From sequence record MG197996.1: a stretch of 39,761 bases of DNA. The stretch is one strand, 5' to 3'. Source of the DNA: Escherichia phage APC_JM3.2. The position numbers and the translations under genes are program-made. Shown here piece by piece: positions 6,066-38,534 of this stretch. Under the pieces are notes generated by a model. That model ran no database searches. It was given only the letters and a program-made list of their open reading frames with translations, and had not been told where the DNA came from. Numbering within the stretch: the stretch's first letter is position 1; every line of letters starts with the position of its first letter.

Positions 6066-6708
6066 TGGCAGCAAATACCGAAATATTTGGGTAGTTGGCG
6101 ATCTGCACGGATGCTACACGAACCTGATGAAAAAACTGGAGACGATAGGATTCGACACCAAAAAAGACCTGCTTATCTCGGTTGGCGATTTGGTCGATCG
6201 CGGTACAGAGAACGTCGAATGTCTGGAATTAATCACATTCCCCTGGATCCGAGCTGTACGTGGAAACCATGAGCAAATGATGATTGATGGCTTATCAGAG
6301 CGTGGAAACGTCAATCACTGGCTGTTTAATGGCGGTGGCTGGTTCTTTAATCTCGATTACGACAAAGAAATTCTGGCTAAAGCTCTTGCCCATAAAGCAG
6401 ATGAACTTCCGTTAATCATTGAACTGGTGAGCAAAGGTAAAAAATATGTCATCTGCCACGCCGATTATCCTTGTGACGAATACGAGTTTGGAAAGCCAGT
6501 TGATCATCAGCAGGTAATCTGGAACCGCGAACGAATCAGCAACTCACAAGACGGGATCGTAAAAGAAATCAAAGGAGCGGACACGTTCATCTTTGGTCAT
6601 ACGCCAGCAGTGAAACCACTCAAGTTTGCCAACCAGATGTATATAGATACCGGCGCAGTGTTCTGCGGAAACCTCACATTGATTCAGGTACAGGGAGAAG
6701 GCGCATGA
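6043..6708 (+). CDS. ninI: NinI, Ser/Thr protein phosphatase (lambda PPase type)
   Basis: [28 protein letters not shown]... GDLVDRG... GNHE metallophosphatase motifs; start set at ATG 6043 by comparison with lambda. Confidence 0.9.
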
Positions 6709-7328
6709 GACTCGAAAGCGTAGCTAAATTTCATTCGCCAAAAAGCCCGATGATGAGCGACTCACCACGGGCCACGGCTTCTGACTCTCTTTCCGGTACT
6801 GATGTGATGGCTGCTATGGGGATGGCGCAATCACAAGCCGGATTCGGAATGGCTGCATTCTGCGGTAAGCATGAACTCAGCCAGAACGACAAACAAAAGG
6901 CTATCAACTATCTGATGCAATTTGCACACAAGGTATCGGGGAAATACCGTGGTGTGGCAAAGCTTGAAGGAAATACTAAGGCAAAGGTACTGCAAGTGCT
7001 CGCAACATTCGCTTATGCGGATTATTGCCGTAGTGCCGCGACGCCGGGCGCAAGATGCAGAGATTGTCACGGTACAGGCCGTGCGGTTGATATAGCAAAA
7101 ACAGAGCAGTGGGGGAGAGTTGTCGAGAAAGAGTGCGGAAGATGCAAAGGCGTCGGCTATTCAAGGATGCCAGCAAGCGCAGCATATCGCGCTGTGACGA
7201 TGCTAATCCCAAACCTTACCCAACCCACCTGGTCACGCACTGTTAAGCCGCTGTATGACGCTCTGGTGGTGCAATGCCACAAGGAAGAGTCAATCGCAGA
7301 CAATATTTTGAATGCGGTCACACGTTAG
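6705..7328 (+). CDS. Q: Late-gene antiterminator Q
   Basis: 207-aa ORF essentially identical to lambda Q as recalled, including zinc-ribbon CRDCHGTGR...CGRCKG. Confidence 0.95.
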
Positions 7329-7370
7329 CAGCATGATTGCCACGGATGGCAACATATTAACGGCATGATA

Positions 7371-7399
7371 TTGACTTTTTGAATAAAGTTGGGTAAATT
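7371..7399 (+). promoter_or_regulatory. Late promoter pR' (with overlapping qut region)
   Basis: -35 TTGACT 7371-7376, 17-nt spacer, -10 TAAATT 7394-7399, directly downstream of Q as in lambda. Confidence 0.6.
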
Positions 7400-7435
7400 T
7401 GACATCAACGATGGATAAATGCACTCGTTAAATAA

Positions 7436-7466
7436 AGCCCTGAGTTAATAGCTCGGGGCTTTTTGC
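7436..7466 (+). terminator. Intrinsic terminator (tR'-like) about 60 nt downstream of the pR' start
   Basis: 9-bp stem AGCCCTGAG / CTCGGGGCT with 7-nt loop followed by TTTTGCGTTTT. Confidence 0.6.
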
Positions 7467-7614
7467 GTTTTAAGCACGGCCTTTCTGAAAGCACATCAAA
7501 CCAAATACCAGACAGACAAAAATAATCACCTTATCCGCTGTGGCTACGGTGCGGTGTACTTTGCTTTGCATAAAAGAAAACTAGCTCAATGTCTGGCTTC
7601 GTGAAAGCTGGTGA

Positions 7615-7646
7615 CAGGAGGTTGCGCTAACAACCTCCTGCCGTTT
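7615..7646 (+). terminator. Terminator-like stem-loop upstream of the holin gene
   Basis: Perfect 10-bp stem CAGGAGGTTG / CAACCTCCTG, loop CGCTAA, followed by CCGTTTTGCC. Confidence 0.45.
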
Positions 7647-7767
7647 TGCCCGTGCATATCGGTCACGAACAAATCTGATTACTAAACACAGTAGCCTGGA
7701 TTTGTTCTATCAGTAATCGACCTTATTCCTAATTAAATAGAGCAAATCCCCTTATTGGGGGTAAGAC

Positions 7768-8091
7768 ATGAAGATGCCAGAAAAACATGACCTGTTAGCC
7801 GCCATTCTCGCGGCAAAGGAACAAGGCATCGGGGCAATCCTTGCGTTTGCAATGGCGTACCTTCGCGGCAGATATAATGGCGGTGCGTTTACAAAAACAG
7901 TAATCGACGCAACGATGTGCGCCATTATCGCCTGGTTCATTCGTGACCTTCTCGACTTCGCCGGACTAAGTAGCAATCTCGCTTATATAACGAGCGTGTT
8001 CATCGGCTACATCGGTACTGACTCGATTGGTTCGCTTATCAAACGCTTCGCTGCTAAAAAAGCCGGAGTAGAAGATGGTGGAAATCAATAA
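7768..8091 (+). CDS. S: Holin / antiholin S (dual-start motif MKM)
   Basis: 107-aa [39 protein letters not shown]... lambda S-like; Met1-Lys2-Met3 dual start. Confidence 0.95.
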
Positions 8092-33041: not shown

Positions 33042-33718
33042 GCGGCGTTTTCCTTAATTTGATGAACATTATTGATGCCGTAGTAATCACAAACAGTGGC
33101 ATCGACAAAAGAGAGATCGTTATCAATCTCATTGGAATCAAACATTCCCATTGGGGATTTAACAGTGTCTGCACCGTTGTTTTTCGTGGTGAAAAAGAAC
33201 TGGTCATCACGGGTAAGGGTGCGAAGAACTATAGTAAACATGCCTTCAACAGTGATTTTCTCGTCCAGCATTTTGCCGATAGTCTTCATTTTCACACGCC
33301 CCATAGGGGTTTCTTCGGTATGGGCAAGAAAATAGACTCTCAGGTCATCAGGCGCATCCTGTGCAGCCTTAATGACCTCCCATGCGTGACGGCCTATCTC
33401 AGTGAATTTATCAAACGATTTTTCTTCTGAGCGGCGCATAAACTCATTGCTCATCACATACTGGAAGTCATCAACAATAACGATTCTTTTCCCGTATTCG
33501 TGAGCACGCTTAATTACGGCAACTATTACGTCCCATTTGTCAGTGGTAACTACGGTTCCTTTTTTTGCTCTGGCATCCCATGCAAGCCAGTCTTTTGATT
33601 TAAATGGTAGCGGCTTGCCTATTGGTTTTATAAGTATTGCTTCCTCTGGATTGATATTTCTCATGCTGGTTGATTTTCCGGTGCCAGACTCACCGAGTAT
33701 TAATGTCGCAGTTCCCAT
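33038..33718 (-). CDS. sak4: Sak4-type RecA-like recombinase (AAA_24 ATPase)
   Basis: 226-aa ORF; Walker A GESGTGKST near N-terminus, Walker B RIVIVDD; size and layout typical of Sak4. Confidence 0.8.
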   Translation of the reverse strand: MGTATLILGESGTGKSTSMRNINPEEAILIKPIGKPLPFKSKDWLAWDARAKKGTVVTTDKWDVIVAVIKRAHEYGKRIVIVDDFQYVMSNEFMRRSEEKSFDKFTEIGRHAWEVIKAAQDAPDDLRVYFLAHTEETPMGRVKMKTIGKMLDEKITVEGMFTIVLRTLTRDDQFFFTTKNNGADTVKSPMGMFDSNEIDNDLSFVDATVCDYYGINNVHQIKENAA

Positions 33719-34115: not shown

Positions 34116-34188
34116 TTAGTTGGAAGGCACCCATGCGAGCGCCTCCCGCGATTGCGTAAATCATGGGTGGTTCCTTATGTTGGTTTTA

Positions 34189-35157
34189 TTAGTAGGTTAT
34201 TTTTGTTGCGAATACTTCGCCTTTTACGATGGCTGTTATGATATTTTTAGCAACATCTTCTGATGCACCAACCTTGATAAGGTCAGCAAGTATTTTGTTA
34301 TTTACTTCTTTCCGGTGAGCTTTATCCTTTGCTCTACGCTCTTCTTCGTCCTTGATTCTTTTTTCTTCTGCGATTCTGGCTTGCTCTTTTGCTTCAGCCT
34401 CGCGCCGGATTCGTTCAGCCTCCTCCTGTGCTTTTCGGCGTTCTGCTTCAATTGCCGCCTGCTTTTCTCTTTCAGCTCGTTCTGCTGCCTCTTTTGCTTC
34501 GCGCTGTGCTCGTTGCTCGGCCTCAATGCGTTCACGCTCTGCACGTTCCGCTGCGGCCTTAGCTTCTGCTTCTCGCCTTGCTGCTGCTTCAATTTCGGCT
34601 TTTGCCTTTGCTTCGGCTTCTGCTCTGGCTTTCTCTTCAGCTTCTCTTTTTAATCGTTCTTCATGCTCTCGCTTTTCCTGCTCCGCTTTGAGTCTTGCCT
34701 CTTCTCTTTGGCGGTCAAATTCGCGATCCATCAAAATCGCTATTTCATGGTCAGACTCAATTTGCTTTGCGAGAGCTTCAGCTGCTGCCTTAGCTTCTTC
34801 TTCGGCTTTAATCCGCGCCTGTTCTTCCTCATAATCAGTAAGAGGCTGGCGCGCCTTGGCTTTCAGTTCATCAAGGCGATCGCGCACTGTCTTGCGGTTG
34901 GCATCAATTAGCTTTGGAATTTCCTTCAGTTCAGCAACAAGGTCTTTGCCAAGACCATCGAGATATGTTTTCGTCTGCGCAACTTTATACGCCAGAGAAG
35001 CGATCTCCTTTCTGCCCTTTGCCGTTGTGATATCAGGCACAAAGGACATAACTTCACGTTCAACCTTTTGAAGGATTTCTTCAATCTGGTCGGCAGACTG
35101 AAATACAGTCATTGCATTTGCTTTTTCAATAACAACTAAATCTGTTACTTCACTCAT
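34189..35157 (-). CDS. ER/K-rich coiled-coil protein (322 aa) with long charged low-complexity helix
   Basis: AAGGAGGA RBS 4-5 nt upstream; central 130 aa almost entirely E/A/K/R (..REAEEKARAEAEAKAKAEIEAAARREAEAKAAAERAERERIEAEQRAQREAKE..). Confidence 0.7.
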   Translation of the reverse strand: MSEVTDLVVIEKANAMTVFQSADQIEEILQKVEREVMSFVPDITTAKGRKEIASLAYKVAQTKTYLDGLGKDLVAELKEIPKLIDANRKTVRDRLDELKAKARQPLTDYEEEQARIKAEEEAKAAAEALAKQIESDHEIAILMDREFDRQREEARLKAEQEKREHEERLKREAEEKARAEAEAKAKAEIEAAARREAEAKAAAERAERERIEAEQRAQREAKEAAERAEREKQAAIEAERRKAQEEAERIRREAEAKEQARIAEEKRIKDEEERRAKDKAHRKEVNNKILADLIKVGASEDVAKNIITAIVKGEVFATKITY

Positions 35158-37802: not shown

Positions 37803-38534
37803 TTAGTAGTCAACTACAGACCACCAGAAGATTCTTCCGATGATCTCGATATCGCTTAGATTCTTTTCTTCTTGTGGGTATTCCAGTGAGTTAAAGCTTC
37901 TAATGCTTACCTTGTCAGGCCCTGATCGAAAGAGAATCTTAATGCGTTTCCAACCGTTCTCGTTAATGGCGTAAATCTTTCCGTCAACTATTTTCTTATC
38001 GTTGGTGTTAACAGCAACTGTTGTTCCATCAGGAATGTTTGGCTCCATGCTGTTGCCACGAGCCGGAAAACAAACAACCCCGCTTCCATCACTGTTCGCG
38101 CCAACTCTGCGAAGGGTTGATTTGGAGAAGCGCAACATAAAGCCGTTGTGATCTTCATCAATCACCCGACCATCCCCGCATGCAAACTCAATATCTTTAA
38201 GGTAAGGAACTTCAACTTCATCACCTCTTAAAGGCGTTCCTCCATCCCATGGGTCCAAATATCCCCACGTGCTTTCATGAGGAATAGAAGATTTTGGATT
38301 ATAAGGTTCAACTCCCTCATCACGCATTGGCCCAGTCCCATCGGAAAGCCATTCCGTACGAACTCCAAGCACTTTTGATATTTCAAAAAGTTTGCGCGTA
38401 TTGCGTGTTTTTCCAGACGTAAGTTTCCAGACGCTTGGCTGAGACATGCCAACAGCATTGCCAAGTGAAGCCTGAGTAAACCCAGCCTGATCCATCGCGT
38501 ATGTAAGCCTTTGAGAAAAAGTATCTAGTTTCAT
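37803..38534 (-). CDS. cI: CI-type prophage repressor (HTH plus S24 autopeptidase domain)
   Basis: 243-aa ORF; N-terminal HTH ..QASLGNAVGMSQPSVWKL..; C-terminal GNSMEP (Ser nucleophile) and ..GWKRIK (Lys) S24 motifs. Confidence 0.9.
   Translation of the reverse strand: MKLDTFSQRLTYAMDQAGFTQASLGNAVGMSQPSVWKLTSGKTRNTRKLFEISKVLGVRTEWLSDGTGPMRDEGVEPYNPKSSIPHESTWGYLDPWDGGTPLRGDEVEVPYLKDIEFACGDGRVIDEDHNGFMLRFSKSTLRRVGANSDGSGVVCFPARGNSMEPNIPDGTTVAVNTNDKKIVDGKIYAINENGWKRIKILFRSGPDKVSIRSFNSLEYPQEEKNLSDIEIIGRIFWWSVVDY

Follow-up and report, generated by a model that had tools for sequence, protein, structure and literature searches.

A predicted Q antitermination switch of the P22/HK97 form, with a short late leader RNA, in Escherichia phage APC_JM3.2

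The question raised by a short late leader

How is a lambda-type late promoter to be understood when the terminator behind it lies only about 60 nt away, at a place where lambda makes a 194-nt 6S RNA? Escherichia phage APC_JM3.2 raises this question between its Q gene and its lysis genes (sequence record MG197996.1; the whole stretch analysed, 39,761 nt, is called the window below, and all coordinates without a phage name are positions in it). Is the short leader a peculiarity of this phage? Does a second hairpin ahead of the holin gene act as a second terminator? Could the leader itself do something as an RNA? The observations outlined below lead us to propose that segment 7371-7471 is very probably the Q-dependent late-gene switch of a P22-like coliphage. 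The feature is of the textbook kind: a Q antitermination switch in its P22/HK97 form, already known and annotated in reference genomes. The features on which the argument turns are the following.

6705-7328, plus strand: gene for the late-gene antiterminator Q, 207 aa (list of open reading frames and protein comparison)
7371-7399, plus strand: late promoter pR' (promoter scan; identity to P22 P-late and lambda pR')
7390-7420, plus strand: qut region, counterpart of the stretch so annotated in P22 (alignment, with the P22 qut and +1 annotation)
7407-7465, plus strand: predicted short pR' leader RNA, about 58-61 nt (fold; ends placed by homology)
7434-7471, plus strand: intrinsic terminator tR' of the P22 type, hairpin and tail (terminator scan, folding, P22 and Emek annotation)
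7472-7596, plus strand: non-coding spacer (alignment; common to HK97, HK022 and the mEp phages)
7607-7653, plus strand: hairpin 2, an extended bulged hairpin (fold and alignment; corresponds to lambda 45031-45066)
7746-7762, plus strand: stem-loop AUCCCC/GGGGGU, immediately ahead of the S start codons (fold; identical to lambda)
7768-8091, plus strand: holin/antiholin gene S, 107 aa, with a dual start at Met1 and Met3 (list of open reading frames)

The late promoter and its antiterminator

The order in the window is the Q gene, then pR', then the lysis genes, of which S starts at 7768. The Q protein is identical to lambda Q at 206 of 207 residues and to P22 gp23 at 202 of 207, and the S protein is identical to lambda S at 106 of 107. 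From the end of the Q stop codon (7328) to the first base of the -35 hexamer (7371) is 43 bp, as it is in lambda. The promoter consists of the -35 hexamer TTGACT (7371-7376), a 17-bp spacer, and the -10 hexamer TAAATT (7394-7399), and both hexamers are those of lambda pR'. Taken whole, the 29-bp promoter matches P22 P-late at 29 of 29 positions and lambda pR' at 27 of 29; the spacer, which contains the predicted Q-binding element, matches P22 at 17 of 17 positions and lambda at 15 of 17. Based on its location, with Q upstream and lysis genes downstream, and on its hexamers and spacer, the element would be classed as a lambda-type late promoter.

Generic scans of the sequence did not rise above chance, either for consensus promoters (2 promoter-like sites against 3.3 expected) or for terminators (7 terminator-like sites against 3.3 expected). 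It is sequence identity to characterised phage elements, together with conservation in hundreds of phages, that argues for the promoter and terminator features being real. The promoter 29-mer itself occurs a single time in the window, and 0 matches are expected in shuffled sequence.

The qut region, the pause element, and an inserted base

Downstream of the promoter the window reads TGACATC and then AACGAT, such that the qut region holds a -35-like TTGACA (7399-7404) and a -10-like AACGAT (7407-7412). In lambda this hexamer, at +1 to +6, causes the sigma-70-dependent pause, and once Q is bound, region 4 of sigma is reported to contact the -35-like element upstream of it. By extension from the lambda literature, AACGAT in the window would induce the pause, and TTGACA would be functional. 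Based on homology with lambda and on the P22 RefSeq record, in which +1 is placed at 37887, where AACGAT begins, transcription would likely start at about A7407.

The alignment reveals one base in this region, A7404, that the window has between the -10 hexamer and AACGAT and that lambda and P22 do not have. The extra base turns the -35-like element from TTGACT into the consensus TTGACA, and the spacing becomes TTGACA-2 bp-AACGAT, against TTGACT-1 bp-AACGAT in lambda. Such a change in spacing could in principle alter the engagement of Q. The insertion is common to HK97 and 22 viral contigs, and because HK97 is a viable phage and the contigs carry the same arrangement, the arrangement is presumably functional. 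Growing phages carry A7404 as a standing variant, and it does not mark this copy as defective.

The first terminator and the leader RNA

The tR' stem spans 7434-7462, with 13 pairs, 6 of them G-C, and a computed folding energy of -19.1 kcal/mol; it is followed by the tail UUUUUGCGUUUU, in which the U-run extends to 7464. The hairpin is the strongest terminator-like site within the 3-kb region scanned. Its arms (GCCCUGAG/CUCGGGGC) and its tail are identical to those of P22 in the alignment, and the stem, at +28 to +56 from the predicted start, is homologous to P22 37917-37945. The inner stem sequences vary among phages and still pair (GAG/CUC; GCA/UGC in loci L159 and L211; CGCGG/CCGUG), and this variation with pairing kept fits selection for a hairpin. 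Termination here would give the leader a 3' end at about +58 to +61, and the predicted RNA folds into a 5' stem-loop, an AAAUAAA stretch, and the terminator hairpin with its U tail.

A preliminary description, made from the letters of the window, had stated that the promoter hexamers match lambda pR', that a strong terminator sits about 60 nt downstream (7436-7466), and that the leader is much shorter than lambda 6S. The present analysis agrees on each point: the hexamers are the same, the stem and the predicted RNA end fall where a terminator had been seen, and the predicted leader of some 58-61 nt compares with 194 nt for lambda 6S RNA. In the alignment, neither the 6S body nor the lambda tR' has a counterpart in the window. 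What has to be given up is the implication that a short leader is peculiar to this phage, given that P22 and Emek annotate the same terminator and that this is the commonest form behind a lambda-type Q.

Comparison with P22, lambda, and the HK97 group

The closest characterised system is that of P22. The P22 RefSeq record (NC_002371) labels “P late or PR'”, “similar to phage lambda qut”, and a +1 on the homologous stretch, and it annotates 37917-37945 as [quoted passage not shown] A qut site and a rho-independent terminator are annotated at the equivalent place in the Emek record, and a promoter and a Qut site are annotated in the HK140 and mEp213 records. In addition, Sy et al. 2020 (PMC7547250) list short, antitermination-regulated late-promoter RNAs as known for lambda (6S), 21, phi80, 82, and P22, with Roberts et al. 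1976 as their reference for P22. Given the P22 labels and this statement, the short leader was already known in both annotation and experiment.

Compared with P22 (NC_002371, 37186-37945), the window has the same 29-bp promoter, the same AACGAT, the same terminator position, stem arms, and tail, a leader of about 60 nt, and an antiterminator protein that is 98% identical to gp23. From promoter through qut to terminator, the alignment with P22 37852-37945 contains two single-base indels only, namely, A7404 in the window and an extra loop base in P22; the tR' hairpin loop is not the same in window and P22 (UUAAUAG against UUUAACCG). The two phages differ further on. The spacer after tR' is the E. 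coli (HK97/HK022) version in the window and has diverged from that of P22, and where P22 has lysis genes 13 and 19, the window has the lambda-type S and R. Within these bounds, the P22 features (P-late, qut, and tR') can be transferred directly to the annotation of this phage.

The likeness to lambda has two parts, one on either side of a replaced segment. Upstream, the window and lambda share the hexamers and the pause element base for base, 15 of the 17 positions of the promoter spacer, and 99% of the residues of Q; downstream, from 7597 (lambda 45015) onward, they have the S leader, hairpin 2 included, and the S gene in common. In between, lambda has about 430 bp (44610-45014: the 6S body, the lambda tR', and orf-64); in their place the window has about 175 bp, the P22-type module, whose terminator is another one and lies close to the promoter. 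The lambda leader, starting from a +1 at 44587, is 194 nt long and ends in another and longer hairpin (44724-44779; -27.7 kcal/mol), and the distance from +1 to S is 599 nt in lambda versus 361 nt in the window. The absence of the 6S body, the lambda tR' hairpin, and the orf-64 region is shared by the window, P22, Emek, HK140, and mEp213 in a six-way alignment. The spacer at 7472-7596 has no lambda counterpart and contains no conserved open reading frame.

Within the HK97 group (HK97, HK022, mEp213, mEp043, HK140, and HZ41), identity is 95-99% over 7330-7770, and the differences are point differences only; most members of the group have a mismatch at the third pair of hairpin 2. The stem-loop at 7746-7762 is one further point of identity with lambda: we take it to be the lambda structure that sets the choice between the S107 and S105 starts.

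How common is the short leader?

A megablast search with 7330-7770 matched 178 phage records; in 49 of these the match covers 80% or more of the query, and the matches include HZ41 (99.3%), mEp213 and mEp043 (98.9%), HK544, HK022, HK97, Sf101, Emek, and P22-like Salmonella phages. Among 5,426 complete E. coli genomes, 728 have a match, and 265 match at least 80% of a 280-bp query.

To what extent do such loci share the short form? The sample consists of 147 loci with the lambda-type -10/pause motif: the window, 141 viral-contig loci among the matches listed by two scans for the motif, and five loci from phage records. Among these listed lambda-type pR' loci, 98 of the 147 have the strict P22-type terminator pattern, 22 have the lambda 6S form, and 27 fall under neither heading; in nearly all of the latter the P22-type hairpin is present and carries a point change, either in the stem or in the U-run. 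In three listed loci the position is taken by a short hairpin of another kind, which in two (L117 and L138) is AAGCCCCGCGG...CCGUGGGGCUUUU and in one is a further variant. The short form accounts for about four in five of the 147 sampled loci, and the lambda 6S form is a minority. Among lambda-type Q phages, as judged by the loci listed, the short leader is the common arrangement, and the 194-nt 6S RNA is the exception.

The sequences around these terminators show several joints. Mosaic joints lie at the tR' U-run (window 7460-7475) in several viral loci; nine contigs join the P22-type hairpin to lambda post-tR' sequence (GCACAACAGG...), and in L159 and L211 a different promoter and a variant hairpin (GCCCUGCAAUGAUGCGGGGC) are joined to the P22-type downstream spacer. 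In L117 and L138 the lambda-type pR' is followed by AACGAUGGGUUAAUGCCUUCGUUUC and then by the hairpin AAGCCCCGCGG-AUAACA-CCGUGGGGCUUUU, with unrelated sequence downstream.

A proposed mechanism

In total, these comparisons are consistent with a mechanism in which pR', by homology with lambda and P22, would fire constitutively. Polymerase would start at about A7407 and soon pause as sigma-70 rebinds the -10-like AACGAT. In the absence of Q, we predict that transcription would terminate at the tR' hairpin (7434-7462) and its U-run, releasing a leader RNA of about 60 nt. As Q accumulates, it would bind the element between the promoter hexamers and load onto the paused polymerase, and the polymerase so modified would resist termination. 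In this model, transcription would then continue past tR' and across the untranslated spacer and the S-leader hairpin, to cover S, R, Rz, and the virion genes of the P22 type. Homology with lambda and P22 is what leads us to infer each of these steps: where transcription starts and pauses, the loading of Q, the point of termination, and the readthrough.

A hairpin that belongs to the S leader

Is the hairpin between the spacer and S a second terminator of the same switch? Its inner stem consists of CAGGAGGTTG (7615-7624), a CGCTAA loop, and CAACCTCCTG (7631-7640), followed by CCGTTTTG, such that the RNA arms CAGGAGGUUG/CAACCUCCUG (7615-7640) form a perfect 10-bp stem. The stem is G+C-rich, with a computed energy of -18.5 kcal/mol, and no other perfect inverted repeat of 10 bp or more with a loop of 3-8 nt occurs in the window. 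The fold extends the structure by an outer helix (7607-7612 with 7648-7653), which pairs across GUUUU and makes of it a bulge.

Like the identities and folds reported above, the conservation and covariation of this hairpin are direct observations. Across 33 distinct variants, 91.5% of cells pair, versus 30-49% after the partners are shifted by one, two, or three columns, and three pairs show compensatory changes (C-G to U-A in the outer helix; in the inner helix, U-A to C-G). The outer helix, with one compensatory pair, has 98% of its cells paired. The perfect inner stem is a different matter, since at its third position (G7617-C7638) no more than 46 of 207 relatives have a standard pair, and 78% have a mismatch (A.C in 78, U.C in 34, G.A in 32, and A.A in 17). 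The perfect stem is a minority state, common to the window and lambda. In only 8 of the 207 loci, all oriented by their flanks, the loop stands in the opposite orientation. The arms contain AGGAGGU and ACCUCCU, which look like a Shine-Dalgarno sequence and its anti-sequence.

The location of the hairpin relative to other elements is informative. In the window and in lambda it lies 120 bp upstream of S. We scanned for its 3' arm plus downstream flank and found 164 contigs with enough upstream sequence; in 55 of them, no lambda-type pR' lies within 1.5 kb upstream, and the hairpin follows other terminators, sometimes with tRNA genes in between (loci L151-L237). Given that it also stands behind unrelated late promoters and at a constant distance from S, hairpin 2 belongs to the leader of the lambda-type S cassette. 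It recombines with the lysis cassette, independently of the promoter-terminator module. In five contigs, a recombination joint lies inside the hairpin and leads to other downstream sequence with its own Shine-Dalgarno motif and ATG.

An alternative reading, which we consider rather unlikely, is that tR' and hairpin 2 are tandem intrinsic terminators, each overridden by Q-modified polymerase. The stem of hairpin 2 is stable, its GUUUUG tail is kept in 189 of 207 oriented relatives, and tandem termination sites downstream of lambda tR' were reportedly described by Luk and Szybalski in 1983. Yet the U-run consists of only four U, begins three bases past the perfect stem, and is predicted to form a bulge inside the longer helix, and the terminator scan did not flag the hairpin. 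In addition, 13 of the 207 relatives, which are of the P22 type, have UGAUUUG or UGAUCUG as the tail while keeping the hairpin and the outer helix across the tail, and the hairpin travels with S and not with pR'. These points speak against tandem terminators, and a dedicated second terminator is improbable. In our reading, hairpin 2 most likely forms an RNA structure within the leader of S that serves processing or stability; as a signal to polymerase it would be a weak pause or a backup stop at most. Daniels et al. 1988, cited in PMC7547250, by its title concerns sites in the late transcript of lambda that RNase III processes, and these may bear on hairpin 2.

The preliminary description had placed a second perfect 10-bp hairpin ahead of the holin gene and had held that polymerase modified by Q must read through both it and the first terminator. 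The perfect stem is indeed there, ahead of the holin gene; a terminator role for it is doubtful, given a weak U-run that is not conserved. The first terminator would have to be passed by Q-modified polymerase in order to reach S. The second hairpin is also no part of the short-leader variant, given that lambda, with its long leader, has it too and at the same distance from S.

Could the leader act as a small RNA?

If the leader is made whenever pR' fires, might it be more than a by-product of the switch? We have considered whether the leader of about 60 nt acts in lysogens as a trans-acting small RNA in the manner of StxS, and we regard this as unlikely. In lambdoid prophages pR' is constitutive, and the predicted RNA, with its 5' stem-loop, its A/U-rich single-stranded stretch, and its terminator hairpin and U tail, has features that would suit such a role. 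There is also a weak likeness, below threshold, to the Hfq-binding RNA IsrJ (28 bits; E value of 0.014). Against this reading, conservation of the 5' half is already accounted for by the needs of pausing and Q loading, and the isrJ match aligns the -10 hexamer of the window with transcribed IsrJ, in a register that is not homologous.

StxS, the short pR'-tR' RNA of Shiga-toxin phages described in PMC7547250, is made similarly from a late promoter, binds Hfq, and regulates rpoS. What it has in common with the predicted leader is that it is a constitutive late-promoter transcript that ends at tR' in lysogeny and is read through when Q acts. It differs in that it belongs to another Q/pR' family, is 258 nt long, and is cut by RNase E to a 74-nt RNA, and in that its regulatory function has been demonstrated.

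IsrJ, encoded by the Gifsy-1 prophage of Salmonella, follows a general plan like that of the leader: it is about 74 nt long, has a sigma-70 promoter to itself, ends at an intrinsic terminator, and lies downstream of a Q-type antiterminator gene and upstream of lysis genes. The Gifsy-1 Q, however, is of the phage 82 type, and the gene order is the 82-type Q gene, an antirepressor gene, IsrJ, a tRNA-Arg gene, and the lysis genes. The IsrJ promoter is TTGCAA-17-TATATT, with a -10-like TAAATC near the IsrJ 5' end. Membership of the window in the Rfam family isrJ (RF01393) was considered and rejected, with a score of 28 bits (E value of 0.014) against a gathering score of 37 and an alignment out of register with the transcription start; a genuine IsrJ from Gifsy-1 scores 100 bits against the same model. 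The isrJ match, below threshold, is the only one that Rfam gives for the window, and no match at the gathering level was obtained in the window, in P22, or in the third leader variant (the one of L117 and L138). IsrJ looks like an analogue, a late-promoter leader RNA, and not a homologue in register.

The Gifsy-1 loci examined (L150, NC_010392) were 33406-33511 on the minus strand and 34131-34329. The Rfam families C4 and c4-a1b1 have matches that overlap the isrK locus of Gifsy-1, which recalls the c4/ant immunity arrangement of the P1 type.

We speculate, with low expectation, that the leader acts in trans on host or competing-phage transcripts and, separately, that the bulged hairpin in the S leader is a processing site setting the stability and timing of the lysis mRNA. 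On the former view, the leader would be made constitutively in lysogens of P22/HK97-type prophages, which are present in hundreds of E. coli and Salmonella genomes.

Other readings of the interval and the mosaic around it

It is scarcely credible that hairpin 1 (tR') is mainly a bidirectional terminator ending a small leftward gene, a 33-aa hydrophobic minus-strand open reading frame (7571-7470), for while the frame ends 8 bp from the hairpin and the A-run to the left of the hairpin becomes UUUAUUU after it on the minus strand, the frame is intact in only 6 of 98 related loci, a 5-nt indel breaks it in close relatives, the promoter scan gave no promoter-like site near it on the minus strand, and no Shine-Dalgarno sequence lies upstream of it. 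As it is intact in so few loci and has no Shine-Dalgarno sequence, the frame is probably spurious. Its translation (MQSKVHRTVATADKVIIFVCLVFGLMCFQKGRA; 7470-7571, minus strand) resembles a small membrane peptide.

Two further candidates in the interval between tR' and S were set aside. The plus-strand “hypothetical protein” annotated there in HK140 is not conserved, and the window has no plus-strand open reading frame of at least 30 aa at 7330-7767. A Rho-utilisation site was considered for the C-rich spacer after tR', where the C/G ratio is 2.3 over 7459-7536 and falls between the 95th and 99th percentiles of the window; the signal is too weak.

Beyond the switch, positions 1-25000 of the window are a mosaic: the nin genes, Q, S, and R are of the lambda type, and the portal, terminase, and coat genes are of the P22 type. 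No single record covers more than 68% of these first 25 kb, and the best overall matches of the window are the coliphages IME10 and HZ41, over the portal, terminase, and coat genes. The remainder of the window is that of a P22-like podophage, and the whole is a typical lambdoid mosaic.
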